Shown here piece by piece: positions 44,100-59,048 of a DNA stretch of 64,000 bases (the stretch's first letter is position 1; each line of letters begins with the position of its first letter). The stretch lies in the NCBI GenBank assembly GCA_048270185.1, contig JBLWTJ010000001.1:1664001-1728000 (forward strand), written 5' to 3'. The position numbers and the translations under genes are program-made. Below the pieces are notes generated by a model that had not been told where the DNA came from, made no database searches, and saw only the letters and a program-made list of their open reading frames with translations. This stretch comes from Bacteriovoracaceae bacterium. GTDB lineage: Bacteria; Bdellovibrionota; Bacteriovoracia; Bacteriovoracales; Bacteriovoracaceae.

Positions 44100-44690
44100 T
44101 CACACTAAGTAGATTGGGTATAGAGACGAAATTAAAAGTAGTGCCATGACGATATTAAAGATTCGTAGGCGTCTTTCATTTTCTAAAAATCCTTTAAGCT
44201 TAAGACCTGCAAAAACCCAAACAGTAATTGATGGCAAGTTCATTAAACTAAATGCCATAAGAATTGCAAGTAAGCTTAGAGTGTGTTCACCTGAATAAAT
44301 TGTTACTGCCGAAATGGCCATCGTCCAAGCTTTTGGATTTATCCACTGAAAAACAGCAGCTTCGACAAATGACATTGGCTTCTTGGCCTCTTGGTCTTGA
44401 GAATTAAATGTACTAAAGCCAATCTTAAAGGCAAGAACAAGAAGGTAACTTCCACACATCATCTGTAAAACTTTTTGAAGATTTGGATAGATCTTAAATA
44501 GGTCACTTGCTCCAAAACCAATAATGGCAACCATCAAGATAAAGCCAACATAAACCCCAAGCATATGAGGAATGGTTTTCTTAAATCCGTGGTTTGCTCC
44601 TGAGGTCATAAGAAGAATATTATTCGGACCAGGAGTGATTGATGAAACAAGGGCAAATGCGAATAGGGCGTATAGTGTTGTCGTGCTCAT
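44100..44690 (-). CDS. LysE-family amino acid exporter
   Basis: ITPGPNN, FQWINPKAW. Confidence 0.92.
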   Translation of the reverse strand: MSTTTLYALFAFALVSSITPGPNNILLMTSGANHGFKKTIPHMLGVYVGFILMVAIIGFGASDLFKIYPNLQKVLQMMCGSYLLVLAFKIGFSTFNSQDQEAKKPMSFVEAAVFQWINPKAWTMAISAVTIYSGEHTLSLLAILMAFSLMNLPSITVWVFAGLKLKGFLENERRLRIFNIVMALLLISSLYPIYLV

Positions 44691-44762
44691 AGGAGCAGTC
44701 TACATGATTTTGAAAATAGTTTATTGCAAAGAGTCGTTATCTGATGTTATATTTTGCAATAT

Positions 44763-45215
44763 ATGACGAAGATAGACTCAATTGACGAAAGAATATTGCA
44801 AGAATTGGAAAATAACGGAAGAATCAGTAATTCTGATTTAGCTGAGATTGTAGGACTTTCTCCTTCCGCATGCTTAAGGCGCGTGCAAGAACTTGAGAGG
44901 TCGAAGGTTATCACTGGCTACCGTGCAAGAATCAATCGTGCCAAACTAGGAACAACCTTTACTGCTTATATGACAGTTGGCCTTTCAAATCACACGAAGA
45001 AATCACAAAAAGATTTCGAAGCGGCCGTTGCGGATTCTCCAGAAGTTGTTGAATGTCACAACGTGACTGGTAGTTTTGAGTATATCCTGCGAATTGAGAC
45101 AACAGATCTAGCTTCGTATAAAATTTTTCACACAGAAGTTCTAGGTATTTTGCCACAAGTAAACTCCATCTCAACTTACGTTGTTATGGAATCTTCTAAA
45201 GACAAGCGTAAATAG
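44763..45215 (+). CDS. Lrp/AsnC-family regulator
   Basis: LAEIVGLSPSACLRRV, ECHNVTG; divergent from lysE. Confidence 0.94.
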   Translation: MTKIDSIDERILQELENNGRISNSDLAEIVGLSPSACLRRVQELERSKVITGYRARINRAKLGTTFTAYMTVGLSNHTKKSQKDFEAAVADSPEVVECHNVTGSFEYILRIETTDLASYKIFHTEVLGILPQVNSISTYVVMESSKDKRK

Positions 45216-45217
45216 GA

Positions 45218-45493
45218 TTACTTATAGAACTCAACGAAGAATTGAACCTCACCTAAAGGCTTTACGTGGTGTAAGACCTCTGGTTCAACAACACCGAATT
45301 TCTTCTCATTTAATTCAATCTCTTCTTGAACGCCCTCTTCAATTTTATAAAGGAGATTCCCCTTTATAATATTAATAAGCCCCCAACTTCCTTTCTTAGT
45401 TTTATGATTTTTAAGCAGGCCATTAGGAATAGTATCCTGATTGAAAATAGGTGTTTTCTTATATGCAGTAACATTGTCTGGTAGAACCTTCAT
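45218..45493 (-). CDS. DUF1971 (TehB N-terminal-like cupin) protein
   Basis: YKKTPIF...IP..LL..H.TK.G.WG, HHVKP, FFVEFY. Confidence 0.85.
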   Translation of the reverse strand: MKVLPDNVTAYKKTPIFNQDTIPNGLLKNHKTKKGSWGLINIIKGNLLYKIEEGVQEEIELNEKKFGVVEPEVLHHVKPLGEVQFFVEFYK

Positions 45494-45622
45494 ATATCCT
45501 CTTGATAAGAAATTAACGACTCTAACAACCTAATATTAGATTGTGATCTTATGATATCAAACAGAAATTTGAATTAGTAGTTAATTTGAGTATATGATCC
45601 TTAAACCTTTAGGGAGGCAAGT

Positions 45623-46471
45623 ATGAAGATTATCTTATTAGTGGTAGCACTTTTACCAATCTTAGCATTTTCAAAAACAACAAATCTTTCACAGAGCAAT
45701 CGACCGTCTCATTATTTCAAAAGAGAAAAAGCGATTTTAAATGTTGGCCTTGCCTACTACGGTGACTACTGGAAAGAGAATGATCTAAAACGAATCACTC
45801 CCATGTTAAAAGAAAGATTTGCCTTAGCAACTAATGAAGTACTTACTCTTAATATCGTTGCTATCGATGTCCTAAGCTATAAAACAAAATTTGACCCTGT
45901 CTTAATGAAGAAGACTTATCCACAAATTAAAGATGAAGCGCGACTGCAACGTGTTTACTACTATGAAACTTTAAAAGGAAATATTCTTTCTGAAGTTTAT
46001 GATGAATTTAAAAAAGCAAAACTTGGAAACTCTTATAAAAGTCTCGATGCACTTCTTGTTGTAACAGGTGCTCAATTTGATGGTCTAGGACTGGCCAACG
46101 GCCGTGTCGCTGTCACAGAGCAGCCACGAGAAATTGCTTGGGGACTACCTGACGGTGGTCGCACAGAAATCGTCAGTGATGAATCAATCGTCGATGAACT
46201 AATCCACGAACTTGGCCATATCATCTTCTTAGGTCACACTTCAACTCAATGTATGAAGCCAGACCTGACTCTTGAAGAGCGCAATCAATGTTGTGAAGCT
46301 TCCCCATCAAAGAACGATGTTATGAGCTATTGTCGCAATCGCAATGACGTCAATCACGGTGTCATCTTCGGTTTTGAATCATGTAATCGCGAAATGATCA
46401 ACGAACTCATCATTCCTGCCATGCTTAAAGGCAAGCGCTGGAACGTCAGCGGACGCCAAACCTGCAAGTAA
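45623..46471 (+). CDS. Secreted zinc metallopeptidase (metzincin-like)
   Basis: Signal peptide; HELGHIIFLGH and a downstream VMSY Met-turn. Confidence 0.7.
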   Translation: MKIILLVVALLPILAFSKTTNLSQSNRPSHYFKREKAILNVGLAYYGDYWKENDLKRITPMLKERFALATNEVLTLNIVAIDVLSYKTKFDPVLMKKTYPQIKDEARLQRVYYYETLKGNILSEVYDEFKKAKLGNSYKSLDALLVVTGAQFDGLGLANGRVAVTEQPREIAWGLPDGGRTEIVSDESIVDELIHELGHIIFLGHTSTQCMKPDLTLEERNQCCEASPSKNDVMSYCRNRNDVNHGVIFGFESCNREMINELIIPAMLKGKRWNVSGRQTCK

Positions 46472-46665
46472 GCAAATGAAGAGTTAGCGAAGCGATACTC
46501 TTCAGACAATCTTCGAATTGTGCACGATGGTCGCAGCCACATCCTGCGGCCAAAAAGCAACGCTTTTTGACGCTGAGATGCTTAATTCCAAGAAATAAAA
46601 AAATAAGCGTCAGCGCCATTTTTTTATGACAGTTTTTATACGTGAAGTAAATGTCAGCTTATTTT

Positions 46666-46689
46666 AAAAAGAATGGTCGGAGCGAGAGG
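46666..46689. repeat. att site, distal copy (duplicated tRNA-Pro 3' end)
   Basis: AAAAAGAATGGTCGGAGCGAGAGG identical to 55562-55585. Confidence 0.95.
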
Positions 46690-46828
46690 TTTCTACTACA
46701 AAAGTCGAAACTTACTATCCAACTGACTGAATTAACATTAATAACAAATAGTTATAAAGGTTTCCTAAGTTTTGGTATTTCACTTTTATTCATTTTATCT
46801 CACTACTTTTCACTGTATTGGCTGGGAT

Positions 46829-47827
46829 TTAGAACTCCCTAGCCCTTGCTTTTATAAGTGCAGGTGTAAAATCATGCTCATCAGTGTATGCCAAAAGTTT
46901 TTTCTTACCGTTCTTCTCACCAATTAATAATCTCTTAGTACCAGCAATACCTAAGCCAAGATTCTCACGAGGCAAGACATAGCCTCTATATATATTAACA
47001 CCATGAGCCTGACTTACAGAGGACTCCGAATGCCAATCAATTTTAAACTTTTTATCAGTAGCACCTCTTAAAGTAGGAAACGAGAGGGCTAAAAAACCAC
47101 AATAAGAGATTTGTTTCAAATCATCACAATTGCATTTCCTAATATCGCTTAAAAATTGTGGTATTACTTCGAAATTTGAAATTTTTGAAATATCTGATTC
47201 GTTCATTCCCTCAAAAAATGATTGTACAAAAGCAGAATATTTCAAACTTTCAAGACTACAATTTGAATAATTCTTTAGATAATCAAAAATTTCATCTTCA
47301 TTTTCCTTTAAAAACTTTTCAAGTACTTCTTGCTTTGGGCCAGAAGGAACAAAATTTAGAATATCAAGTTCTTTGCTACAATACAGCTTATCGTCCCCAC
47401 AAGTTGAACAATCATTTTTCAATAATCTTCGGTCTTCTATATCTACGACTATTGGAGACTTTCTAGTATAAAGTATATTTTGCAAAGCTAAGCTAACTGT
47501 AGTCAATCCAGCAGAAGTAGTGTGGCCATCAGGGAAACTGCTAAAATGTTTTTCAAGCTCTTCCTCGGGGCATAAGCTACTTTTTTTCATTGGCTTAAAA
47601 AGAATATTTGATCCCATTTTATTTACTGAGCTAACAAACACCTTGCCCTTTGCGTCACTTTGCAATATTGGATAAATTGAATACGGAACTAATATAATTA
47701 TAAAATGCTTCAGTTGAGTTGCAAGACTTTCTAGTTTGAATAAAAAATCCACGACATCACTAATATTAGTACGATATAGAACTAAATCTCTCTCAATGAA
47801 TGGGGAAATAAAGACTTCAAAACGCAC
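46829..47827 (-). CDS. Unknown protein, candidate effector of the upstream ATPase
   Basis: 7 nt downstream of the ATPase gene; CSTC motif; C-terminal R-L-L...YTDEH resembles RelE/BECR-type RNases (weak). Confidence 0.6.
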   Translation of the reverse strand: MRFEVFISPFIERDLVLYRTNISDVVDFLFKLESLATQLKHFIIILVPYSIYPILQSDAKGKVFVSSVNKMGSNILFKPMKKSSLCPEEELEKHFSSFPDGHTTSAGLTTVSLALQNILYTRKSPIVVDIEDRRLLKNDCSTCGDDKLYCSKELDILNFVPSGPKQEVLEKFLKENEDEIFDYLKNYSNCSLESLKYSAFVQSFFEGMNESDISKISNFEVIPQFLSDIRKCNCDDLKQISYCGFLALSFPTLRGATDKKFKIDWHSESSVSQAHGVNIYRGYVLPRENLGLGIAGTKRLLIGEKNGKKKLLAYTDEHDFTPALIKARAREF

Positions 47828-47834
47828 AACTAGA

Positions 47835-49325
47835 TTACACTTCTCCAGCTTCTATTTTTTCAAGTCGAAGCTTTGTTAGGTCATCTATTAGCTTATCTCT
47901 TTCATCCATAAAACCATCAGGAGGATTAATTATATATCCCATGTTGTCGTGTTCAATTTTTCGAGCAACAGCTTTTCCATCAATTCTCTCAACCCATAGC
48001 ATTTTTACTTCTTCAAATAGTTGAGGATATTTCACATTAAAATATACTAATTTACTCAATAAGCTTTCACTGTGAGTTTCGATTAGTACAACTTTTCCAA
48101 GTAAAGACATCTGCCCAAAAAAGTCAGCTAACTTAGACTGTGCACTTGGATGAAGGTGGATTTCAGGTTCATCAACAATACAAGTTTCAGACCTGTCAGA
48201 ACTAAGTACTCTGAAAATCACCGGTAAGATTTGACTTAAACCGTATCCCATATTGTTAATAGAAAGCTCTTTACCATCTAAAACTAATATAATTTCAGAA
48301 GTCAAACCTGATGCTATTGATCTGATATCAATCGTTTTTGCAATTTTAAAGAAGTTAACCCAATAATTTAAACTTTCCTCAAGTGTTTGCTGTACGATTT
48401 CATTTTTAGAAAAATCAAAATAACTATCTATTTTGTTATTTTTCTTCCTAATATAATCTTCTAGTGGATTATTAAATCCACCATCTGAATAGATACGATG
48501 AGGCTCGCCTCTAAATGGAGGAATGACAATGATTTTGTCTACTTCTATCTCAGGGATAAAATCAACATCAATACTATTATGAAGCTGAACATAGTCTCCA
48601 AATTTAGGCTCATTAATCTTTCTTAGATTATTAGCGACTACCCCTTTTTTAGTAAAAGCTTTTTTATATTCTTCACTTAAGCAGTCCTCAAGACTTTCTA
48701 TATTTAAATCAAAACTAAGAAGCATAAAATTTTTGAATTTTACATTTCTAACGTCCGAAAACTCAACAACACTACTGAATACACCGCTTGGCCTTACATT
48801 TTTTCCAGCTTTTGCTAATAAGTTAGTGATCATGTAATCAATAAACCTTCCCTCTGAGTAATCAGCAAAATGTACAAACTTTTCTGCTTTTATCTTCCAC
48901 TCACCTGTTGCAGTATTCATTTCTGCTTCAATTGAATGTTCTGGGCTTGCTCTATAAAACATCCTCTTCAGTAAAATATATTCAAAAGTATCTTTACCGT
49001 AATCTTCTCTATGTAGGAAAAATGTTAGCTCTGCATAACCTTGGTCAGATTCAAAAGATAAAAATACTTCCTCATCAGCTATATTGTTTAAAAGTTCCGA
49101 AGGCTTACCTATTTCTAAGTAAGGCCCATTCACTTTTAACATCGGGACTTCTGAGCCTAAATAGTTTTTAGTTTCATTATATGACTGAAGAATTATGAGT
49201 ATTGCTTGATATACAGAGCTCTTACCTGAACTGTTAACCCCTGACAGTAGAGTTAGCTTACTCAATTCTATATATTCAATATCTCCGAAAGACTTAAAGT
49301 TTTTTATTCCTATTTTTCTTAACAT
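47835..49325 (-). CDS. ABC-type AAA ATPase (AAA_15/AAA_21, DUF3696-like tail)
   Basis: IKNFKSF, GVNSSGKSS, MGYGLSQILP, IVDEPEIHLHPSAQ, IETHSE, terminal PPDGFMD. Confidence 0.9.
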   Translation of the reverse strand: MLRKIGIKNFKSFGDIEYIELSKLTLLSGVNSSGKSSVYQAILIILQSYNETKNYLGSEVPMLKVNGPYLEIGKPSELLNNIADEEVFLSFESDQGYAELTFFLHREDYGKDTFEYILLKRMFYRASPEHSIEAEMNTATGEWKIKAEKFVHFADYSEGRFIDYMITNLLAKAGKNVRPSGVFSSVVEFSDVRNVKFKNFMLLSFDLNIESLEDCLSEEYKKAFTKKGVVANNLRKINEPKFGDYVQLHNSIDVDFIPEIEVDKIIVIPPFRGEPHRIYSDGGFNNPLEDYIRKKNNKIDSYFDFSKNEIVQQTLEESLNYWVNFFKIAKTIDIRSIASGLTSEIILVLDGKELSINNMGYGLSQILPVIFRVLSSDRSETCIVDEPEIHLHPSAQSKLADFFGQMSLLGKVVLIETHSESLLSKLVYFNVKYPQLFEEVKMLWVERIDGKAVARKIEHDNMGYIINPPDGFMDERDKLIDDLTKLRLEKIEAGEV

Positions 49326-49340
49326 TACATGTAGCCCAAT

Positions 49341-49369
49341 AAAAAAAGCCCTTTATGATAAAGGGCTTT
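49341..49369 (-). terminator. Intrinsic terminator between the microprotein gene and the ATPase gene
   Basis: AAAGCCCTTTAT/ATAAAGGGCTTT inverted repeat with a 7-U tail on the minus strand. Confidence 0.85.
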
Positions 49370-49406
49370 ATATAATTCTTAATAATTTAGCTTAAATAGT
49401 TTATAG

Positions 49407-49523
49407 TTATTCGTCCACTTCGAGATCAGAAAATTCAGTTTCAGAGAATTCAAGATTTAGCTCACTTAAATCAAAATCAATCTCCATGATGTCAATTTGA
49501 TCGTAAATAGAGTTCACATTCAT
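49407..49523 (-). CDS. 38-aa highly acidic microprotein (not in ORF track)
   Basis: GGAGG RBS 5 nt before ATG; MNVNSIYDQIDIMEIDFDLSELNLEFSETEFSDLEVDE; own promoter and terminator. Confidence 0.75.
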   Translation of the reverse strand: MNVNSIYDQIDIMEIDFDLSELNLEFSETEFSDLEVDE

Positions 49524-49559
49524 ATATTCCTCCAAGAATTATTATATTAACCAATTATC

Positions 49560-49586
49560 TTATCGACATATTGGTAAAAACTTTTA
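49560..49586 (-). promoter_or_regulatory. Sigma-28 (FliA)-like promoter
   Basis: Minus strand TAAA-N15-GTCGATAA versus consensus TAAA-N15-GCCGATAA. Confidence 0.65.
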
Positions 49587-49747
49587 GCCATAAATATACA
49601 CTTTGTAAATATATCTACGCTATACTTATTATAAATTTTACACCATTATATTCGAATTTCGAAGAAAAACAACTTTGCCTAGAGAAATCTTTATTTAATA
49701 AAACTTAATCACTGTTTTAACTATAAGCATAAGTTATTGATATTTAA

Positions 49748-49975
49748 CTAATCTCGAGTAAATAAGTCAGTAACCTCTACATCAAAGGCTACTGCTAGCC
49801 TATAAACAGACGAGAGGGAAGGACTATGGCCACCACTCTCTATTTTCTGATAATGCCTATAATTAAAGCCATACTGCACCATGTCCTCTTGTGTAAGACC
49901 TCTCGCCCTTCTAAGTTTCTTAATCTTAGAAGCTAATTTATAGATAAATTCTTCATAATTCTCACATGATGCCAT
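49748..49975 (-). CDS. Small XRE-family HTH regulator (controller-protein-like)
   Basis: IKKLRRARGLTQEDM...YQKIESG.HSPSL. Confidence 0.9.
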   Translation of the reverse strand: MASCENYEEFIYKLASKIKKLRRARGLTQEDMVQYGFNYRHYQKIESGGHSPSLSSVYRLAVAFDVEVTDLFTRD

Positions 49976-50008
49976 TCAAATATTATTGAATTCACGTACA
50001 AATTACAC

Positions 50009-50042
50009 CACGTACTATATAGTTCGTGTTCAGTGTTATAAT
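50009..50042 (+). promoter_or_regulatory. Palindromic operator plus extended -10 promoter
   Basis: CACGTACTATATAGTTCGTG (near-perfect 20-bp palindrome) then TGTTATAAT. Confidence 0.6.
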
Positions 50043-50062
50043 CACCTTAAGAGGTGAAATTT

Positions 50063-51661
50063 ATGAAATTTAATAACTATCTTTGGGATTTATATAAAAG
50101 CAATTCAAAGTCACTCGAGAATGATAAAGAGCTGCTATTTTCAAATGCGAGCTTTGAAGATGCGAATATCTACTTTACTTGCTTTGAAGCCGACTCTAAC
50201 TATGAGCCATTAAGTAAACCAAAAGAAATTGAGTGCCTAGTAGATTTAGTTCGAGTTATCAAAGATTTTGCAAAAGACGAAGAAGCTACAAGCATAGACG
50301 AAGCTGAAGAAATCTTCCGAGTTATTGCAGATGACAGGATTGACCTCTATTCAGGAGATGACTTCTATCTTCCTGATGAAGATAAAGATAAAAAATATAT
50401 TAGCTATTTGGGCGGTGGAATCGAGCATGAAAGATTCTATCAAACAGACATAATTTCTAATATTGAACATATAACACTAGGGCTACATCAAGCTTATCCG
50501 CAGTTCTTTTTTCCATATCTTTTTGTAAGAGAATTCAATCGACTTAATGAACTGGCCAATTTTTTTGATATCAAACTTCCATCGCTTCCAAAAAAGAGAC
50601 ATAAAAGAGACAGGGCATTCTACTATCTTGAAGTTAATCGAATATTTCAAGATCTAAGGGCCAAGCTAAAATTATCACCTACGGAGTTTAATTTCTTTAT
50701 ATATGACTTTGGATTAAAAAACTTAGAATCACTTAACACACATAGTAAAACCAAAGAAAATTTACCGAATCCTTCTAGGGCATGGCTCATTATTGGATAT
50801 GGTACAGGTATAGATGCTGAATTTTTAAATAATCTAAATGAAGAAACTGTAACACAATGGCAAGGAAAGATAGAAATGCGTGTAGGTGATATTGTACTTA
50901 TGTACCAACGTAATCCAAAAAGTAGCCTCCACTCTATTTGGCGAGTTGTTGAATCTGGCTTTAATGATCCATACGCATTCCACTATGCTCAAACAAAGAT
51001 TGGGTATCCAATTGAAATACCAAAGATTACATTTAAAGAAATAAGAGAAAATGAAATACTAGGCTTAATGCCAATAGTTAAGGCCTCATTTCAGGGTGCG
51101 ACAGGATCAACATTTTCTCTTAGCGAGTATAATGAAGTATTGAAATTAATTAATTCAAAAAATCCAAATATTAGAAACCTACCTCACTTACCAATTGTTG
51201 AAGAACTTAAGAATATAGAGATTTCTAACGAGAGAGATGTAGAAATAAACTTACTTGAGCCACTTCTTGAAAAGCTTGGTTTCGCGAATAATGAATGGAT
51301 CAGGCAATTTCCAGTAAGAATGGGAAGAGGTCAAAGAAACTATCCTGACTACGTTTATGGCGGTGACCCTACTCATGGCGAAGAAACAGCAAAGGCCTTA
51401 ATTGAATGTAAATATCACATAGATAGAGATGCAACTCTTACAGATACTTTTAAGCAAGCAAAATCTTACGCTCTGAGACTTAGAGCAAAGCTTTTTGCAT
51501 TAGCAGACAAGCAAGGTATTTGGATATTCAGATATGTTAATGATGACTTTAATCGAGATGTATTTGAATATATGAGCTGGGTTGAACTTCTTCATCATGA
51601 AAAACTACATGAGTTATCCTTGTTTATCGGAAAAGAGTTTATTGAGGATCATTGTCCTTAG
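50063..51661 (+). CDS. Putative restriction endonuclease: EVE/PUA-like domain + HsdR_N-like PD-(D/E)xK domain
   Basis: QWQG...MRVGDIVLMY; ERDVE..LLEPLL, YPDY, IECK, QAKSYA. Confidence 0.75.
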   Translation: MKFNNYLWDLYKSNSKSLENDKELLFSNASFEDANIYFTCFEADSNYEPLSKPKEIECLVDLVRVIKDFAKDEEATSIDEAEEIFRVIADDRIDLYSGDDFYLPDEDKDKKYISYLGGGIEHERFYQTDIISNIEHITLGLHQAYPQFFFPYLFVREFNRLNELANFFDIKLPSLPKKRHKRDRAFYYLEVNRIFQDLRAKLKLSPTEFNFFIYDFGLKNLESLNTHSKTKENLPNPSRAWLIIGYGTGIDAEFLNNLNEETVTQWQGKIEMRVGDIVLMYQRNPKSSLHSIWRVVESGFNDPYAFHYAQTKIGYPIEIPKITFKEIRENEILGLMPIVKASFQGATGSTFSLSEYNEVLKLINSKNPNIRNLPHLPIVEELKNIEISNERDVEINLLEPLLEKLGFANNEWIRQFPVRMGRGQRNYPDYVYGGDPTHGEETAKALIECKYHIDRDATLTDTFKQAKSYALRLRAKLFALADKQGIWIFRYVNDDFNRDVFEYMSWVELLHHEKLHELSLFIGKEFIEDHCP

Positions 51662-52148
51662 TATCTACAAAATGAATGACAATTTCATCATTTTCCTCTT
51701 CTTCACTAATACTATCGAAAGATGAGCCATCACTCTTATCTCCCCATTTCTCAGGTGAGCGTCTACTTAATCGGTATGCTGATGCTTTCCAGTCAGGCTT
51801 CACAAGATATGAAGATACGACAGGATATCCCAACTCATCTAGTATTGGTTCGCCATTATCATCTAGCTTATACGACTTAGGTATTCCAAATGCCGCTTGG
51901 TTGATAACACCTAAGTGCCTTACTTCATCCTCTGCAATAGCAAGCCGTATCGCGTCCGATAATTTCACACATCTAGGGTTTGCATCTTCACTTTTAGCAT
52001 CTCTCAACCAACGATATAAAGTAGACTTACTAACTCCAACCAGTGCCGCGGCTGTTTCGATAAATGCTCCATGCTTTATTGCTGCATATATTTCAGAAAT
52101 CAGTTTATCTGTTAGTTTTGGTGATGAGTTCTTAGGGTATCTAGCCAT
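51639..52148 (-). CDS. Terminase-small-subunit-like HTH protein
   Basis: AAALVGVSKSTLYRW HTH, DWKASAYRLSRRSPEKWG, terminal IVIHFVD strand. Confidence 0.55.
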   Translation of the reverse strand: MARYPKNSSPKLTDKLISEIYAAIKHGAFIETAAALVGVSKSTLYRWLRDAKSEDANPRCVKLSDAIRLAIAEDEVRHLGVINQAAFGIPKSYKLDDNGEPILDELGYPVVSSYLVKPDWKASAYRLSRRSPEKWGDKSDGSSFDSISEEEENDEIVIHFVDTKDNDPQ

Positions 52149-52261
52149 TTATATTCTCCTATATAGAGATTCTAGCAATGAGCCTATTGCCTATAAATAC
52201 ACCATGTGTTTTAACTATTTACGAATATGTATAAGTATCTATAGAAATTGAGAATTAAATA

Positions 52262-52855
52262 ATGCAAGAAGAATCATCAATCGATCAAATACCTCGAAAA
52301 CTACATAAAGAACTCATGCGAGTACATAACACAGCTCTTCTTCTAAGATACGACAAAGAAATACTATACCTTGAGAATGAATTGGAAATATCAAACCAGC
52401 TTCTAAAGACAATAAATAAGTCTGTTGGTGAAAAGTCTAATGTAAACTTAGGTAAATCAATAGGAGATAGTCTAATTAGAGGGTCATACCTAAACACTAA
52501 CTTTAATAAAGTTCAAATTAAAAAGTCTATAGAACAGGATAAAAAAGAACTAAAATCTGGAATGAAGAACATAAAAGACTATATTGAAAAACTTCACACT
52601 GATAAAGAAGTTGGACTCTTTTATCAAGAAATTAAAAACTCTAAGACTAGTAAGCCAGTTGACTTACTCTGTACAAGAATTATATTCTTACTTTATCAAG
52701 AACTTAAAAGTGCAAACAAGGTCCATAGCTATCTTTTAAAACATACTGCTATACTTGAAGACTTATCCCCTATTCCTTCAATTAGATCCATTTCTAATCG
52801 AGTCAGAAACTATAAGAAAAAGTATCATACATATTTTGAATCAATACACGATTGA
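52262..52855 (+). CDS. Hypothetical protein
   Basis: 197-aa ORF upstream of the xis-rep-xis-int run. Confidence 0.6.
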   Translation: MQEESSIDQIPRKLHKELMRVHNTALLLRYDKEILYLENELEISNQLLKTINKSVGEKSNVNLGKSIGDSLIRGSYLNTNFNKVQIKKSIEQDKKELKSGMKNIKDYIEKLHTDKEVGLFYQEIKNSKTSKPVDLLCTRIIFLLYQELKSANKVHSYLLKHTAILEDLSPIPSIRSISNRVRNYKKKYHTYFESIHD

Positions 52856-52974
52856 CAATTTTTACACAAAATACTCATCAAACGTGAATATCCACTCTCC
52901 TTAATAAAAAGTTACTGTGAATACAGTTTTACATAATCGTAAACAGTAACAACTATAAACAGGGAGAATAATCA

Positions 52975-53151
52975 GTGAAATCAAATGACGACTATCTAAT
53001 GACCACCAAAGAGCTTGCCAAGAAGCTAAGCGTAAAGGTTTCCTATATTAGATATCTGAAGATGAATAATCGAATTCCTTATATCAAAATTGGTAAACTG
53101 ATACGTTACTCAAGCAAAGAAATAGCCGTATGGCTCAATAACCAAAACTAG
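52975..53151 (+). CDS. Excisionase/AlpA-like HTH protein (58 aa, not in ORF track)
   Basis: GGGAG RBS, GTG start; YLMTTKELAKKLSVKVSYIRYLKMNNRIPYIKIGKLIRYSSKEIAVWL. Confidence 0.85.
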   Translation: MKSNDDYLMTTKELAKKLSVKVSYIRYLKMNNRIPYIKIGKLIRYSSKEIAVWLNNQN

Positions 53152-53207
53152 AAACTAAACAACATGCAAAAAAGAACAATGCTCGAATTTCGAGTAAAGG
53201 AGTCACT

Positions 53208-54155
53208 ATGTCAATTTCTCTAAAAAATATAAGAGAAAACAAAAAACAATCTGAAGATACAGTACTTCCCTTATTAAGTGGGAAAGTAGAATCAATTTGT
53301 ATAAATCCAAGTGAAATTAATACAGGAATAGATAGAATAGAAGGAAACCTAACCCATCTCAGTATAGCCGACATTAGAAAGCTTAGAGAAGTAGACAAGT
53401 GCCCTGTAGAGAAGCATATCAAAGGCCTAGGCTACATACGTTCGTTTAAATTAAAGTTAATCACACTTAATCTCTGCTATATGAAACAGACACATATATT
53501 GCCATATAAGTTTTACTTTAATCTTAATCACTCAAATGACATAAATATACAGTTACAAGATTTAATCAACCACTTCAAAACAGCCCTAGATAAATCAAGA
53601 ATTGTTAGAGTCGACTTGAATGCTGACTTTAAGTCGTCAATTCAAAACATGTTAATTAACCTACAGGTGAAAAATAAACAGATGTCAAAAGAATATAGGT
53701 GCACGCATAACAATATTGAAGGTAAATCTTGGGGAAAAGATGATGAAATCATAAGAATATATACATATGAAAATAATGAAGATGAGCCTATTACTCGTCT
53801 TGAAGTTCAAATCAGGAATAAGAAGCTCCCAAGAGATAGAAGTTTTTCAAATATACTTAAGTGGTTAAAGACTAATACTTTCTTTGAATCCATACAATTT
53901 TGGAACATCAATGGAATCAACAGTACTCCATTTAAAAAAATTAAACAGCTTGATTTTTATAGGTACTACGTAAAGTTTTTTAATCTTATAAATCTACAAA
54001 CACTTGGTTTTACAGAAGCAAGAAGTAGGTCAAAAGAACCAAAGAACTTCATGAGGAGTCTTCGGAGACACTTAAAAATAGAAAAATCTGACATCTCATT
54101 AATGAAAATATTTCGCCATCAGGTGACAAGTCAGCTGGGATCAAAGTATGAATAA
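53208..54155 (+). CDS. Putative replication initiator, Rep_trans-like
   Basis: RVDLNAD, IRIY and RLEVQIR in Rep_trans order; AAGGAG RBS. Confidence 0.6.
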   Translation: MSISLKNIRENKKQSEDTVLPLLSGKVESICINPSEINTGIDRIEGNLTHLSIADIRKLREVDKCPVEKHIKGLGYIRSFKLKLITLNLCYMKQTHILPYKFYFNLNHSNDINIQLQDLINHFKTALDKSRIVRVDLNADFKSSIQNMLINLQVKNKQMSKEYRCTHNNIEGKSWGKDDEIIRIYTYENNEDEPITRLEVQIRNKKLPRDRSFSNILKWLKTNTFFESIQFWNINGINSTPFKKIKQLDFYRYYVKFFNLINLQTLGFTEARSRSKEPKNFMRSLRRHLKIEKSDISLMKIFRHQVTSQLGSKYE

Positions 54156-54336
54156 TCAGCTCTTTAACAAACGAATATGGAAAATAAAAGATGTAGCTGA
54201 GTATCTACAATGTTCAGTAGGAACTATCTACAACAAGACGAGTAAAGGTGAAATACCATTCTTTAAGAAAGGAAAATCTTTATACTTTTCCCCAGAAGAA
54301 ATTGAAAACTGGGTACAGGAGGGAAACCTTGAATAA
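54148..54336 (+). CDS. Excisionase-like HTH protein
   Basis: IKDVAEYLQCSVGTIY...GEIPFFKKGKSLYF..EEIENW; overlaps both rep and int. Confidence 0.88.
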   Translation: MNNQLFNKRIWKIKDVAEYLQCSVGTIYNKTSKGEIPFFKKGKSLYFSPEEIENWVQEGNLE

Positions 54337-55477
54337 GTATAAAAAACTCAAACATCATACTGGAATTAGAAAAGTATTATCTAGCGGTAACTATGAAGCT
54401 TCAAAAAAGATTAAAGGAAAGACTTACTCTCAAACCTTTAAGACTATAAGACAAGCTCAGCACTGGAGAAACACTTATAACCCTTTCTTAAGCTTTACAC
54501 CTGAGACTAACGGCATGAAGTTCAAGGAGCTATGGGAAAAATATGAGGAAGCCTACTTCCCAGAAATTGAAAAATCATCGCAAGGAATCAAGAAACAAAG
54601 GATTAAAGTTTTCAAACACCATTTAGATGATATCTCTGTATATGAAGTAACTCCTGAGTATATAGATCATATAGTTAAGCTAGAGAAAAAACTTGCTATC
54701 AGTAACCCAAATAGTAAAAGGTGTAACTTCAAAAGTAGTCTAGATGAAGTTAAGGCTGCATTTAACTGGTATCGTGAAAACTATGACTATCAATTCCATA
54801 GTCCAGTATTAAAAAGGCATTACACTATTGGAATTATCAGAAAAACTGAGAAAAGAGAGAGAATCTTAACTAAGGATCAAGTTGTTAGATTCTTTAAAGC
54901 GATAGACAATCCTTTATTTCAAGATTTTGCAATTATTCAATTCTTTTGTGCTTCGCGATTTGGAGAAGTAGCAGGAATACAAATAAAAAACATAGACTTT
55001 GAAACAGATTCTCTATTAATAAAGGAAGTTGTAGTTGAAGATCAAAGTAAAAAGTTTCTAGAACTAAAACCATACCCTAAAAATGGGCACGCTAGAGTTG
55101 TAGCAATTACTTCAGCTATTTTCAAAGCTGCTATTCAGAGAAGAATGGCTGATAGAGTAAAAGGATCAAACTACTTAATACATAGAAATGGCAATCCCAT
55201 GAGCTATCGTTCAGTTCAATTCCAATATAACAAAGCTTTAAAAAAGGCTGGATTACACCCAGAGTTTAGCTCTACACATATCTTAAGATATTCAATGGCT
55301 TCAGAGTCAAGACGTATAATGGGCTCTCTAGATGCTGCACAGGCTATTACTGGCCACAAGTCGATTAAGATGATTGAACACTATGCAAGAGTACCAACTA
55401 TGCTTCAAGGTGAGACTATTTCTAAAGTGAGTTTTGAAATTGAAAATACTTGGAAAAGCATACAAAAGCCTAATTAA
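54329..55477 (+). CDS. Tyrosine recombinase/integrase
   Basis: Catalytic R (SRFGE), HILR, GH, HY; TTG start after GGAGG. Confidence 0.95.
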   Translation: MNKYKKLKHHTGIRKVLSSGNYEASKKIKGKTYSQTFKTIRQAQHWRNTYNPFLSFTPETNGMKFKELWEKYEEAYFPEIEKSSQGIKKQRIKVFKHHLDDISVYEVTPEYIDHIVKLEKKLAISNPNSKRCNFKSSLDEVKAAFNWYRENYDYQFHSPVLKRHYTIGIIRKTEKRERILTKDQVVRFFKAIDNPLFQDFAIIQFFCASRFGEVAGIQIKNIDFETDSLLIKEVVVEDQSKKFLELKPYPKNGHARVVAITSAIFKAAIQRRMADRVKGSNYLIHRNGNPMSYRSVQFQYNKALKKAGLHPEFSSTHILRYSMASESRRIMGSLDAAQAITGHKSIKMIEHYARVPTMLQGETISKVSFEIENTWKSIQKPN

Positions 55478-55561
55478 GCTGGGAAAGGCTGGGATTATAA
55501 AATAAATATCAAAGGAGAATTTAGTAAACTATTAAAAACACTGAAGAAATTAAAGTTTATA

Positions 55562-55585
55562 AAAAAGAATGGTCGGAGCGAGAGG
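55562..55585. repeat. att site overlapping the tRNA-Pro 3' end
   Basis: Identical to 46666-46689. Confidence 0.95.
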
Positions 55586-55646
55586 ATTTGAACCTCCGAC
55601 CCCTTGCTCCCAAAGCAAGTGCGCTACCAAACTGCGCTACGCTCCG
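55570..55646 (-). tRNA. tRNA-Pro (TGG)
   Basis: CGGAGCGTAGCGCAGTTTGGTAGCGCACTTGCTTTGGGAGCAAGGGGTCGGAGGTTCAAATCCTCTCGCTCCGACCA, 77 nt with encoded CCA. Confidence 0.97.
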
Positions 55647-55719
55647 ATTCAGATTTTGGTAGGGTATTTATAAGTGATCTAAAGCTTTTTGGCAACCTAG
55701 AATTTCAAAGATATGAAAC

Positions 55720-56301
55720 TTATTTAAGCTCACTAAAAAACTTGATGGCACTGGCCACGGCCTTAGCACGGTGTGAATTCTCATTTTTCCACTCTTCCAG
55801 CTGCGCTACAGTGGTATCAGCAAAGGCTTTCGGGCAAAACACAGGGTCATATCCAAAGCCACCATCACCTTCATAACTATCTGAAATCTCACCTTCCATA
55901 CGTCCCTCAAAAAAATATATTTCCTCAGGACTTAAGTAGAAACAAAGGACACAAGTAAAATAAGCGTCGCGATTATTCTCTCCTTCAAGCTTTTTTAGAA
56001 GAAGTTCAGCGCGCTGACGATCAGTTAGGTTCTCGCCACCAAAGCGGGCCGAGTAAATACCTAACTCATCAGGAAGAACCTCAACATTTAAGCCAGAGTC
56101 GTCGGCAACAACCGGAGTTTTAAACTCTTCATAATAGGCTTGTGCTTTTTTTAGAGCGTTTTCTTGGTAGGTATTCCCATCTTCAACGACTTCAAGTTTC
56201 TTGGATGCGGCCTTGATTGTAATATTCGTATCCTTAAAAAGAATTGCGAACTCTTCGGCCTTGTGAGCATTTCCAGTTGCTAGAATAAAGTCGTGTTTCA
56301 T
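55720..56301 (-). CDS. rdgB: Non-canonical purine NTP pyrophosphatase
   Basis: ATGNAHK, ADDSGL, GFGYDP, SHR. Confidence 0.96.
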   Translation of the reverse strand: MKHDFILATGNAHKAEEFAILFKDTNITIKAASKKLEVVEDGNTYQENALKKAQAYYEEFKTPVVADDSGLNVEVLPDELGIYSARFGGENLTDRQRAELLLKKLEGENNRDAYFTCVLCFYLSPEEIYFFEGRMEGEISDSYEGDGGFGYDPVFCPKAFADTTVAQLEEWKNENSHRAKAVASAIKFFSELK

Positions 56302-56307
56302 TATAAC

Positions 56308-57015
56308 CTACTTACCGAGAGCTTCTTTTTGTTTTGTGAATACAACTTTCAGTGACTCAGCAGCACAATCTAATAAAGCATCCATTTGCTCACGAGAAAA
56401 GGCCATTCCTTCCGCTGTTCCTTGAACTTCGATGAATTTTCCAGACTCAGTCATGACAATATTCATATCAGTTTCACAACTTGAATCTTCTTCATAATTA
56501 AGGTCAGCAATAATCTTACCTTCTTTATTAATTCCACAGCTAATTGCTGCAAGAGGCTCAATAAGAGGGCTTTCAGAAAGGTCACCACTAACAATTAGAC
56601 TTTGAATTGCAAGTTCAAGGGCAACGAATGCTCCAGAGATTGAAGTTGTACGAGTCCCACCATCTGCAACCATAACGTCACAATCAAGGGTAATCATTCT
56701 CTCACCTAGTTTTTCCATATCGACAACAGCTCTTAGGCTTCGTCCAATAAGTCTTTGAATCTCTTGGGTTCTTCCACCAACTTTTGAACGCTCTCTTCGA
56801 GAACGAGTATGAGTTGAACTTGGAAGCATTGAATATTCAGCAGTCACCCACCCCTTACCTGTTCCTCTCATCCAAGGTGGAACACCATCTTCAATAGATG
56901 CCGTGATATGAACTTTTGTATTACCAAATTCGGCAAGAACACTTCCCGCTGCATATGGGTTAATATTAATTGAAAATTTTACTTCTCTTGGAGTCGAGCG
57001 CTCGATTAATGACAT
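56308..57015 (-). CDS. rph: Ribonuclease PH
   Basis: GWVTAEYSMLP, GRTQEIQRLIGRSLR, ADGGTRT. Confidence 0.98.
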   Translation of the reverse strand: MSLIERSTPREVKFSININPYAAGSVLAEFGNTKVHITASIEDGVPPWMRGTGKGWVTAEYSMLPSSTHTRSRRERSKVGGRTQEIQRLIGRSLRAVVDMEKLGERMITLDCDVMVADGGTRTTSISGAFVALELAIQSLIVSGDLSESPLIEPLAAISCGINKEGKIIADLNYEEDSSCETDMNIVMTESGKFIEVQGTAEGMAFSREQMDALLDCAAESLKVVFTKQKEALGK

Positions 57016-57059
57016 ATTGAATACCTCTGAATTTATTAGTATTCTTCGATAATAACATA

Positions 57060-57737
57060 ATGAGAAAATCTATGAAACATATTCATTTTAAGGAAATTGA
57101 TTCAACGCAAACGAAAGCTACTGAGCTGGCCAAAGAAAACAATGAAGTTTTAGTAACTGCGCAGAAACAGATTAAAGGTCGAGGCCGCCGCGATAATCAG
57201 TGGCTTGATCTCGACAATAGTCTCGCCATGTCCATGAAACTCGTACCAGGTGATAAACCAACACTCCTTGCACTCGAAGTGGCCGTTCTCTTAGCTGAAT
57301 ATTTTCACAAAGATGATCTAGTTCTAAAATGGCCAAATGATATTTACAACCGACAAGGTCAAAAAGTGGCAGGTATCCTTGTAACTAAAAATGATGAAAA
57401 CTATATTGTTGGAATCGGCATCAACTTTGGCCCGGACGATAATATTAAAGACAAGAAATTTGGCCAACTAGAATCAGGCTATGCTCTTTCTCCAAAGGAG
57501 TATGAAAGTATTCCTAAAGATATTTATCAGTATATTAAATCTCGTCGTTTGAATGATTCACAAATAATCACCAAGTGGAATGATCGATGCTTTCATCTTA
57601 ATCAAAATTGTAAAATTATTGATGATAACGAGATTCTCGAAGGTCTATTTAAAGGGATTGGACAATTTGGAGAAGCTTTAATTGAGATGGAAGGAAAAGT
57701 TGAGAAAGCCTATACAGGCTCTCTCCTATTTGAATAA
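57060..57737 (+). CDS. birA: Biotin-protein ligase (no HTH domain)
   Basis: DSTQ, GRGRR..W, KWPND, KVAGIL. Confidence 0.92.
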   Translation: MRKSMKHIHFKEIDSTQTKATELAKENNEVLVTAQKQIKGRGRRDNQWLDLDNSLAMSMKLVPGDKPTLLALEVAVLLAEYFHKDDLVLKWPNDIYNRQGQKVAGILVTKNDENYIVGIGINFGPDDNIKDKKFGQLESGYALSPKEYESIPKDIYQYIKSRRLNDSQIITKWNDRCFHLNQNCKIIDDNEILEGLFKGIGQFGEALIEMEGKVEKAYTGSLLFE

Positions 57738-57738
57738 T

Positions 57739-58971
57739 TTATTCTGAAATTGAAGTTAGAACTTGTTTACTGATATTCTTTAATTCTTTTTTAATTAAAT
57801 TTTCAGCTAGATCTGGAACAATTTCCCAAATGATTTTCTCAATATTTTGCTCACAGTATTCACGTGCATACTTTTCAATAACTGGACCAATTTCACTTCT
57901 TAAATCATTCTTCAAAGCTTCCATGTCAAGTGCTGGAGCTTTAACTGCTGATTTAATATGAGCAGTTGTCTTTGTACTTCCAAATGAAAAATCATCATTC
58001 ATACTTTGATTATTTGAAATATCAATTTCGTGCTCATCTTCTGTTTCAGAAGAAAAAGTTTGTGACATATCTTCATCTACATCCCAAAGATTATCATCAG
58101 AAATCTCTTCAAAGTCGTCTGAATCATCTTCAAAAGTACTTAGAGCTTCCATCGGTACTTCTTCCATTTCATCTAATTCATCGATATTAGACTGGGCCGG
58201 TATTTCAAAATCTTCATCTAGTTCATCGTCAAGATTACCGACAAAACTGCTAACATCTAAAACAGAAGTTGGAGATTCTGGACCTTCTTCAAATTCGTCT
58301 TGAGTATCAATCTCTTCGCTAGCTTCAATAACAGGTGGTAGCGTATCGAAATTCCCCGTGACGTCACTTCCCTTAAGGTTCGTTGGATCAAATCCCCAAC
58401 CATCAAGCTCTGACTCAAGATTATTATCTTCATCTTTAAGTGGTGCATGATCACTTAAATCAAATTCAACTGTTTTATCGTCTTCATGATCATGATCTTC
58501 TTCAGAAGGAGCTTCTGCTTGAACCAAAGAACTATCAACATCCCAACCAGAGAAATTATCATCTTCAGCTTCATTGGAATCTTCGTTTGGATAATCTTCT
58601 TGAGAAATTGATTGAACTTCACTTCCGATCATATCATTGCAAAGTGAAATGAATTTTTCTGTTTCAAAAGGCTTTACAACTTTGTCAGAAAAGCCACTAT
58701 TACGAAGCTTCGTTTCATCAACGATATCGAATGTACCGAGTAAAGCCAAGATAGGAGTATTTGGAAACTTTTCTCTCGTTCTTTGCCCAAGAGCATAACC
58801 ATCATCAGATAGGCCAAAATCAAGAAGAATCAAATCAAAGCTATCTTCAGCATTGAATAACTCTGATTCATCCAATACTGGAGTGATATCAAAATCTTGA
58901 TTTGCGAATGTAATTTTTATTACTTTTTGAATTGTCTGACTATCGTCAGCAACTAATACCTTTCTACTCAT
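57739..58971 (-). CDS. romR: RomR-like response regulator
   Basis: N-terminal REC domain, long acidic linker, C-terminal EKIIWEIVPDLAENLIKKEL. Confidence 0.75.
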   Translation of the reverse strand: MSRKVLVADDSQTIQKVIKITFANQDFDITPVLDESELFNAEDSFDLILLDFGLSDDGYALGQRTREKFPNTPILALLGTFDIVDETKLRNSGFSDKVVKPFETEKFISLCNDMIGSEVQSISQEDYPNEDSNEAEDDNFSGWDVDSSLVQAEAPSEEDHDHEDDKTVEFDLSDHAPLKDEDNNLESELDGWGFDPTNLKGSDVTGNFDTLPPVIEASEEIDTQDEFEEGPESPTSVLDVSSFVGNLDDELDEDFEIPAQSNIDELDEMEEVPMEALSTFEDDSDDFEEISDDNLWDVDEDMSQTFSSETEDEHEIDISNNQSMNDDFSFGSTKTTAHIKSAVKAPALDMEALKNDLRSEIGPVIEKYAREYCEQNIEKIIWEIVPDLAENLIKKELKNISKQVLTSISE

Positions 58972-59048
58972 ATAAAACCTCAATATATTGTTACGCAAAA
59001 AATCCAGCTAAGCAAGCATGAGTTTGCGATTGAGAGGTCCTAATTACT

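Follow-up and report, generated by a model that had tools for sequence, protein, structure and literature searches.

The window analysed here is a stretch of 64,000 nucleotides of contig JBLWTJ010000001.1 (positions 1,664,001 to 1,728,000 of the forward strand) from the Bacteriovoracaceae bacterium assembly GCA_048270185.1, and it contains, at a tRNA-Pro gene, a repeat-bounded segment of 8,920 bp (46666..55585) that is almost certainly a recently mobile integrative island. Judged by its genes, the island is probably a small capsid-less phage satellite resembling the phage-inducible chromosomal islands (PICIs), the virion-encapsidated integrative mobile elements (VEIMEs) and the PICMIs (minimalist phage-inducible chromosomal islands), and it carries an unusual replicase, p315, which appears to be a very divergent rolling-circle initiator of the Rep_trans fold, together with p169, a homologue of the small terminase subunit (TerS). 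The general type is known: marine satellites that are small, lack a capsid, and combine int, alpA, a replicase and, in some cases, terS with defence cargo (PMC9618062; PMC10803314). What is new here is a Rep_trans replicase too divergent for Pfam and its sparse, phylum-wide family of tRNA islands, although the VEIME supplements might hold such replicases. An earlier note on this DNA, made from the sequence alone, had proposed a compact satellite with an unusual replicase and possibly an undescribed satellite family. The discrete mobile insertion at tRNA-Pro, the TerS and the Rep agree with the first proposal, satellite behaviour itself being read from the genes; the replicase is indeed Rep_trans-like rather than a primase-helicase; and an undescribed family is plausible, although the general kind is already in print (PMC9618062; PMC10803314).

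The island and its insertion at tRNA-Pro

The integration target is a tRNA-Pro(TGG) gene on the minus strand (55570..55646; Rfam RF00005, 68.2 bits), the single tRNA that ARAGORN finds in the window. The exact 24-bp direct repeats described in the earlier note were recovered by a repeat finder and in the sequence itself as part of a slightly longer pair (46666-46692 and 55562-55588; 26 of 27 positions identical, the first 24 bp exact). The copy at 55562..55585 (core of the right attachment site, attR) forms the 3' end of the functional tRNA-Pro, and the distal exact copy at 46666..46689 (attL) is the displaced tRNA-Pro 3' end, the core spanning the last 16 nt of the tRNA and 8 nt downstream. 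The 24-mer, with up to 2 mismatches allowed, occurs exactly twice in the 3.35-Mb genome; an 18-nt part of it has 2 copies in the window, and two matches were obtained in 0 of 100 shuffles. The G+C fraction is about 0.38–0.41 in the flanks versus 0.31–0.34 in the island interior.

A 16.5-kb query (43000-59500) was searched against 30 related genomes, and the island interior was found in none of them (matches of at most 77 nt only, the longest inside the gene of the 62-aa helix-turn-helix (HTH) protein described below). In five congeners (G008, G011, G004, G009 and G002) the left- and right-flank matches lie 11–27 bp apart on one contig, the right-flank match beginning at the tRNA, and in two further ones (G005 and G006) the sequence left of attL (46596-46665) directly adjoins an intact tRNA-Pro, forming a contiguous attB. 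The tRNA-Pro site is empty in these seven congeneric genomes, which is the outcome that the earlier note had proposed to look for, and relative to G005 and G006 the repeat-bounded segment is a clean insertion. All the marks of a tRNA-integrating island are present: repeats of the tRNA 3' end beside an intact tRNA, an adjacent tyrosine integrase and empty sites. The precise insertion into the tRNA, the regenerated tRNA end, the intact recombination genes and the absence from relatives are direct observations in support of mobility.

Three metagenomes hold small shares (0.05–0.06) of the stretch, all as contigs, and contigs with island flanks come from seawater and plastic-surface samples only. 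A 91-nt contig of metagenome X3 joins 46664 to 55560, skipping 8,895 bp; with a shorter side of 24 nt, it is a weak hint only. Metagenomes X1 and X2 cover the flanks at about 99–100% identity and leave most interior bins uncovered, but none of their contigs joins the two flanks, and this interior gap was not used as evidence.

The ten open reading frames (ORFs) of the island were scanned against Pfam, PHROGs, PADLOC and NCBIfam (hereafter the four libraries). None of them matches a capsid, tail, portal, large terminase subunit (TerL) or conjugation family, in line with the earlier note, which had seen no capsid, tail or conjugation genes, and no primase or helicase family was found by Pfam in any of them. 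The gene nearest to the target encodes the tyrosine integrase (54248..55477, plus strand; PF00589 8.5e-17, phrog_1 1.2e-39) and ends 92 bp from tRNA-Pro. The longest ORF begins with GTG at 54248, but translation more likely starts from TTG 54329, placed 6 nt after AGGAGG and overlapping the stop of the preceding gene, p62. Catalytic residues had been recognised in the earlier note; when nine island integrases are aligned with this one, no sequence departs from R237, K278, R347 or Y379, H344 is almost invariant, and H370 stands directly after the invariant G369. The two genes described there as Xis/AlpA-like also hold up as members of the HTH_17/excisionase family of DNA-binding proteins: p58 (58 aa; 52975..53151, plus strand; PF12728 6.3e-9, TIGR01764 6.4e-8, phrog_66 1.9e-6) and p62 (62 aa; 54148..54336, plus strand; PF12728 9.4e-14, TIGR01764 8e-9, and NF047737, MAD1-like, 1.4e-13, below its cut-off). 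Neither reaches the Pfam AlpA model PF05930. Toward the tRNA the order of this plus-strand mobility operon is p197, p58, p315, p62 and integrase. Its first gene, divergent from terS, encodes the orphan p197 (197 aa; 52262..52855, plus strand), which has no family match in the four libraries and no detectable similarity to the proteins in the same position of two related islands (L044 and L058, described below).

A second integrase, 35–39% identical, is encoded elsewhere in the same genome (locus L059, G000:C2:443000-462900; locus positions 10099-11433, minus strand), about 3.7 kb from tRNA-Lys/tRNA-Glu and with a 58% identical p62-like HTH_17 partner. Its neighbours are orphans, a phrog_14259 protein and a Fic-domain protein, and there is no Rep or TerS relative at that locus.

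Two further observations concern the left edge of the insertion. The stretch missing from the five congeners extends from about 45216 to 55567, so that 1.45 kb left of attL (45216-46665) is also absent from them; two proteins are encoded there, one of 91 aa that matches DUF1971 (3.2e-23) and is 62% identical to a paralogue from contig 2, the other of 282 aa with a weak match to M12 metallopeptidases (3.6e-4). An earlier insertion at this tRNA may have left the stretch as a scar, or it may form a second variable segment. Additionally, a stretch of about 160 bp left of attL (46527-46692) recurs elsewhere: two tandem copies lie beside tRNA-Pro in G006 (L012, 2770-3060), the outer one bearing a partial att core (AAGAATGGTCGGAGC), and a 73% similar copy is found on contig 1 of the own genome (G000:C1:1481201-1481318). 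It looks like a small repeated element or a footprint of earlier integrations.

The predicted replication initiator p315 and the terminase homologue p169

p315 (315 aa; 53208..54155, plus strand) is concluded to be a very divergent nicking initiator of the Rep_trans fold, with a predicted activity, because its family profile, its modelled fold and its invariant residues agree. Searched directly it gave no match in the four libraries (Pfam at E <= 0.1) or, with phmmer, in PDB, and a word-based protein search returned p315 itself only. An exhaustive HMMER search yielded 36 relatives at E <= 1e-3, the closest of them 43% (P0002), 39% (P0003) and 31% identical; D136, D140, K157, G176, Y185, R197 and E199 are invariant in p315 and all 36, and two of the relatives have a weak Phage_CRI match. 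Compared with PDB, the family profile matches the RepDE/RepDN chains 4cwe (1.9e-4) and 4cwc (3.6e-4) of staphylococcal rolling-circle initiators, in an alignment that passes through the motifs tRlDl..Df, iRiYnK and RvEi. The alignment-based AlphaFold2 model has a predicted local distance difference test score of 85.4 and a predicted template modelling score of 0.83 (the single-sequence model, with 35.8 for the former score, was unusable), and Foldseek ranks Rep_trans initiators (4cwc, 4cwe and 4cij; E 7e-8 to 2e-6, probability 1.00) as its top six matches in PDB, followed by TATA-box-binding proteins. The Rep_trans clusters found in the ESM Atlas are a lead only.

With the Rep_trans initiators (4cwc/4cwe, that is RepDE/RepDN, and 4cij; PF02486) p315 appears to share both the fold and the catalytic motifs, namely the acidic RlDl..Df, the tyrosine motif iRiY(n/d)K and the R-x-E strand; unlike those plasmid-borne proteins, it is chromosomally integrated with an integrase. 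The tyrosine of its RIY motif (Y185) is the predicted nucleophile, as in RepC/RepD. No fused HTH family was found in p315 by Pfam, and residues 37-104 of the model are mostly strands. Among the Rep proteins of the ten related islands described below, four match PF02486 at 2e-5 to 9.5e-4, below its 29.6-bit cut-off. The gene that the earlier note had called Rep-like is accordingly retained as such, with no direct family match and a Rep_trans likeness by profile, fold and motifs. Searches with the single protein or with a 3-row alignment (A5) found no relatives in collections of genome contigs, IMG/VR viral contigs or metagenome contigs, and neither iterons nor a convincing origin hairpin were found near rep.

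p169 (169 aa; 51639..52148, minus strand) matches phrog_4102, annotated as terminase small subunit, over residues 11-86 (5.7e-19). By homology it is a genuine TerS homologue, standing alone without a TerL gene, because its relatives precede TerL and because it is homologous over its full length to a TerS of viral contig L060. The latter protein (154 aa, 9986-10450) lies directly upstream of TerL and portal genes and is 31% identical to p169 (E 9e-23), which carries a 30-aa insertion relative to it; the match includes the stretch W-x-A-x-A-[WY]-R-L-x-R-[KR]-x-P-[DE]-[KR]-W-G, located after the HTH. With a 4-row alignment of the p169 family (A4), 11 loci were found in IMG/VR, and in 5 of 5 viral contigs examined out of these 11 the p169 relative is directly upstream of TerL, with the portal gene next in four. 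The TerL type is Terminase_6N/6C in four of the five contigs; in L069 it is Terminase_3, at 21.4 bits versus a cut-off of 23.2 bits. In GenBank phages the sole match of p169 is the TerS of Halorubrum tailed virus 28 (32.5% identity, residues 7-86, 5e-4), and its profile finds in PDB only a 22-residue HTH match to TetR regulators. These results uphold the TerS-like gene of the earlier note.

Among 237 other genomes of the order, p169-type TerS proteins were clearly present in three (G050, G247 and G236; two in islands and one on a short contig), three further matches being weak and limited to about 25 HTH residues. In the island of G247 (L058, G247:C24), a 71-aa ORF at 9407-9622 beside TerS is 44% identical to p169 residues 96-166 and looks like a partial terS duplication. 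In the window, a 191-aa serine-rich ORF (51676-52251, plus strand) runs antisense over the whole terS gene and is most likely a shadow ORF, not a gene.

Related islands, rival explanations and known satellites

With the Rep profile, relatives of p315 were detected in 18 of the 237 further genomes of the order and in 25 of 400 sampled genomes of the phylum, whereas the 12 congeners yielded none. Of 16 fetched contexts, 15 contain a tRNA gene (nine different tRNA kinds in all), and in ten of these 15 an exact repeat of the tRNA 3' end (16–47 nt) bounds 4,253–9,865 bp. All ten delimited islands encode a tyrosine integrase; HTH_17 was detected by Pfam in eight, and in the other two BLASTP finds a p62/p58-like ORF overlapping or adjoining the integrase gene. 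Their cargo varies and includes Avs2 (E = 0, 1,539 bits), HEC-09/NYN (1.9e-48), CapP/CapH-like M78 and HTH proteins, an SDH-type protease, DUF4325 and an MqsA-like protein. These comparisons place the Rep relatives in one family of small tRNA islands whose cargo varies. TerS was recognisable in two of the ten islands, and in two different families: L044 encodes a 48% identical p169 homologue (phrog_4102, 4.9e-25), and L045 a TerS of another family (Terminase_2 at 34.4 bits, above the cut-off; phrog_51 2.5e-9). TerS is thus not a core gene of the Rep family. The Avs2 protein just mentioned is full-length (1,520 aa; L048, G105:C38, 6839-11401) and belongs to an 8.5-kb Rep island at tRNA-Met, where it stands just downstream of rep and of a gene for a 120-aa HTH protein faintly similar to p169.

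A different exchange is seen in L058, a sister island whose TerS, 45% identical, has the same location and strand orientation as here. Its order (int, HTH_17, primase-helicase, AlpA, orphan, TerS on the opposite strand, and Hachiman HamA/HamB) matches that of the island studied here, the replicase being exchanged: the Rep slot is occupied by a 655-aa primase-helicase with a DnaG zinc ribbon, DUF7146, Toprim_3 and AAA_25. With a primase-helicase found there, the gene order of L058 speaks for a role of the Rep slot in replication rather than in conjugative nicking.

Read as a phage satellite, the island would work as follows. Int and one or both HTH_17 proteins would excise it as a circle; p315 would nick the island origin via Tyr185 and drive rolling-circle replication to concatemers; p169 would bind a pac site of the island and recruit the TerL of an infecting helper phage, and the concatemers would be packaged into helper capsids and transduced. 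The cargo would protect the host, and hence the island, from phages. Rolling-circle concatemers are the packaged form in two published kinds of small marine satellites (PMC9618062; PMC10803314). A tandem array of four island copies would measure about 35.7 kb, not far from the 36.4 kb of the viral contig of L060, which may itself be incomplete. The simplest guess for the helper is a virulent phage, since the genome has no prophage packaging genes and no p169-type TerS was seen beside TerL in the 237 genomes.

The same facts also count against a satellite, together with several others. Seven marker families were searched and none matched anywhere in the 95.9%-complete genome, which leaves a helper without a trace in Terminase_1 (PF03354), Terminase_6N (PF03237), Terminase_3 (PF04466) or HK97 capsid (PF05065), and p169-type TerS was found next to TerL in 0 of the 237 other order genomes. 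No Stl-type master repressor was recognised in the island, where the XRE protein p75 lies within the cargo half and p197 counts as an orphan. TerS was not recognisable in eight of the ten Rep islands, and Rep relatives were absent from the IMG/VR viral contigs searched. As for the replicase, p315 itself gives no match to the Rep_trans model PF02486, its Foldseek TM scores are low (0.27–0.45), and Rep_trans proteins are also the conjugative relaxases (MOBT) of Firmicutes elements (PMC11389934; PMC6499999; PMC7563843). The defence roles of two cargo proteins, p332 and p535, rest on weak leads.

It is unlikely that the island instead does without any helper, as an integrated rolling-circle plasmid-like element or a plain defence island that spreads by generalized transduction, vesicles or transformation, that may replicate briefly as a circle, and whose terS is a leftover or a decoy acting in defence against phage packaging. 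The lack of a detectable helper phage or prophage, the absence of TerS from most related islands and the richness in defence-like cargo would suit such an element, and it is plausible that a TerS on its own might poison packaging by an infecting phage. On the other hand, two other islands, whose replicases and cargo differ, retain TerS at 45–48% identity and with unchanged position and orientation, a pattern that fits a module which the element requires for its own life cycle; moreover, int, alpA, replicase and terS without structural genes are the combination of known satellites (PMC9618062).

A still smaller chance is given to an integrative and mobilizable element (IME), in which p315 would be a MOBT-type relaxase acting at oriT, transfer would use the mating pore of an incoming conjugative element, and TerS would be a DNA-binding accessory protein or regulator. 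Rep_trans-related proteins are the MOBT relaxases of many IMEs and integrative and conjugative elements (PMC11389934; PMC6499999; PMC5357655; PMC7563843), an integrase, an excisionase, a Rep_trans protein and cargo in 4–10 kb fit the layout of an IME, and the eight related islands without recognisable TerS would fit it as well. However, MOBT relaxases combine Rep_trans with an HTH (PMC11389934), and p315 has neither an HTH match nor, in the mostly stranded residues 37-104 of its model, a sign of one at the N-terminus; neither VirB4 (PF03135) nor a VirD4-type coupling protein (PF02534) was matched in the 95.9%-complete genome or the island, although these could come with an incoming element; full-length homology links p169 to a phage TerS encoded beside TerL; the corresponding slot of L058 holds a primase-helicase, not a relaxase; and the MOBT elements named in the available part of PMC11389934 come from Firmicutes. 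A decayed prophage, stripped of its structural genes but still holding int, xis and terS, would account for the tRNA site, the integrase, the excisionase-type genes and terS, and yet is very improbable: the att cores agree in 24 of 24 positions, none of the ten ORFs is broken, the libraries yield no fragment of a TerL, portal, capsid or tail gene, the island has its own replication initiator, and its small size and layout recur in ten relatives, each at another tRNA gene, which speaks for a stable design and not for random decay.

Taken as a phage satellite, the island shares with the PICIs an int gene, an alpA/xis-type regulator, its own replication initiator, site-specific att sites, the absence of structural genes and the presence of defence cargo, and p169 supplies the terS through which PICIs hijack packaging. 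Some PICI lineages have their own terS, and their mobility operon is divergent from the neighbouring gene, as it is here. It differs from them in the replicase, where PICIs have a primase-helicase (Pri-Rep) and the island has the Rep_trans rolling-circle initiator, in its size (8.9 kb, smaller than usual for a PICI) and in the capsid-size redirection genes, none of which was recognised in it. VEIMEs are likewise small and integrative, with a tyrosine integrase, AlpA/excisionase-type regulators, TerS homologues, no major capsid gene and restriction- or abortive-infection-like cargo; some of them have plasmid-type replication initiation genes, and their concatemers, consistent with rolling-circle replication, fill capsids of normal size (PMC9618062). 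VEIMEs are defined by concatemers inside virus particles; no sequence link between them and the island emerged, the Rep relatives not being found in IMG/VR contigs, and the term Rep_trans is absent from the VEIME paper (PMC9618062). PICMIs are in common with the island minimalist marine satellites without capsid-remodelling genes, and for PICMI115 rolling-circle replication, packaging of concatemers and a virulent helper phage were demonstrated experimentally; their defence cargo lies between the replicase and the att end and includes PARIS, a pair of ABC-ATPase and effector (PMC10803314). Their core consists of int, alpA and primase beside fis, in place of which the island has a Rep_trans-like replicase and tRNA-Pro; the term "small terminase" was not found in the available PICMI text, and the island has a TerS (PMC10803314). 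In the accessible part of PMC11389934, Rep_trans is tied to MOBT relaxases only and not to a satellite replicase, and other literature that joins "phage satellite" with "Rep_trans", as far as it was available, concerns plasmid fusion and deletion in Staphylococcus aureus.

It is possible, with some doubt, that an undescribed satellite family, sparse across a phylum, has here its first recognised member. The core of such a family would be int, HTH_17 and the divergent Rep_trans initiator; interchangeable TerS modules, of which two families were seen, would match different and probably virulent helpers; and its cargo bay would shuttle Avs2, HEC-09 and a two-gene NsnB–effector pair lacking NsnA between cells. 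Much of bacterial anti-phage immunity is now believed to travel on small helper-dependent islands, and the satellite families compared so far (PICI, PICMI, P4-like) are recognised via a primase-helicase replicase. Tools for satellite detection rely on markers such as the primase-helicase, and searches with that marker would probably miss a Rep_trans-based island family; the proteins of the Rep family could serve as markers for finding more such islands. The related islands also provide a natural experiment in module swapping, with the same TerS beside two unrelated replicases and the same Rep beside two TerS families. An undiscovered helper phage of the host lineage is indicated by a TerS that stands alone in a genome devoid of prophage packaging genes. 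If the satellite reading is true and the host is predatory, the island would be the first phage satellite from organisms of this kind and would testify indirectly to unknown phages infecting them.

Cargo and minor features

Cargo takes up 4,833 of the 8,920 bp (about 54%), close to the half of the length that the earlier note had assigned to candidate defence genes, and a strong defence match was obtained for one protein, p496. The several defence-like modules proposed there stand in so far as p496 is NsnB-like, whereas p535 has sub-threshold EVE and HSDR_N matches only. Unexplored in this cargo are the NsnB-like ATPase, which has an orphan partner but no NsnA, and the EVE-like candidate nuclease beside its C-protein-like regulator.

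p496 (496 aa; 47835..49325, minus strand) is an ABC-type ATPase with AAA_15/AAA_21 (PF13175 5.7e-28, PF13304 5.5e-20) and a C-terminal DUF3696 (PF12476, 2.5e-5); its best PADLOC match is NsnB (7e-56), followed by HEC-03B (2e-32) and AriA (1.4e-27), and its translation contains the Walker A sequence GVNSSGKS and the Walker B sequence IVDEPE. The gene of the orphan p332 (332 aa; 46829..47827, minus strand) follows after a gap of 8 bp. Neither p332 nor, by Pfam, its separate halves matched anything in the four libraries, and a word-based search of 5.8 billion proteins returned p332 only. Its ESM Atlas lead consists of clusters of about 290 aa with YoeB_toxin in 15–60% of members (score 0.92, recognition below the usual mark), and p332 is a candidate effector partner of p496, possibly NsnC-like.

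The Menshen system consists of NsnA (ParB-DUF262), NsnB (AAA_15 and DUF3696) and NsnC (inactive PIN and nuclease); NsnC is a polymorphic effector whose nuclease is BECR/YafQ-like in the type system, and it is predicted to dock on the DUF3696 tails (PMC12065111). p496 shares the architecture of NsnB and is directly followed by a gene of unknown family, as NsnB is by NsnC, and the YoeB-type lead of p332 would fit a BECR-type C-terminus of NsnC (PMC12065111). It differs from Menshen in that no DUF262/ParB NsnA was found in any island ORF and in its Walker B residues, DE versus the EN of the NsnB of S. silvestris (PMC12065111). Because there is no DUF262 protein, the Walker B is canonical and p332 is an orphan, the pair reads as an NsnB-like ATPase with a putative effector and not as a Menshen system; p496 would control the adjacent p332.

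The other cargo pair is divergently arranged. p75 (75 aa; 49748..49975, minus strand) is an XRE/C-protein-like HTH regulator (PF01381 6.1e-9; PADLOC Control_protein 5e-7 and HTH_VI 3.1e-7; phrog_3 repressor 1.1e-11), and the 78-bp intergenic region that separates it from the gene of p535 contains predicted operator-like repeats (49994..50028), namely two CACGTAC boxes and an inverted GTTCGTG, with a palindrome at 50009-50028 that is 92% complementary. p535 (535 aa; 50054..51661, plus strand, likely start ATG 50063) matches over its full length phrog_37753 (3.7e-88), a family of unknown function. Residues 250-400 alone give a sub-threshold EVE match (4.5e-4, 20.7 bits versus a cut-off of 23) and the C-terminus a weak, likewise sub-threshold HSDR_N_2, PD-(D/E)XK-like one (0.012); there was no match in PADLOC, none by sequence in PDB and none in GenBank phages at 1e-5. 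It is tentatively regarded as a candidate nuclease that senses modified DNA, and, taken together with the CACGTAC repeats and p75, it looks like a regulated nuclease of the restriction type; in the satellite reading this EVE/nuclease-like protein would be under the control of p75.

Few other features were detected. A terminator-like hairpin of 11 pairs and a T run (49345..49369, minus strand), a consensus match only, lies between the HTH and ATPase genes, and promoter-like sites are not enriched (40 versus 37.8 in shuffles). An Rfam scan of 44000-57000 found only the tRNA and a sub-threshold match to HTH-XRE RNA (RF02923; 54183-54261, inside the p62 coding sequence; 30.5 bits versus a gathering score of 49.8, E 0.011), which is probably due to chance. 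Finally, two short, low-depth contigs of metagenomes X1 and X2 match only the gene of p535 (50051-50198 and 50606-50751) with 12–13 differences per about 150 nt; as they match this gene alone, a cargo gene about 92% similar therefore circulates in another context or strain.

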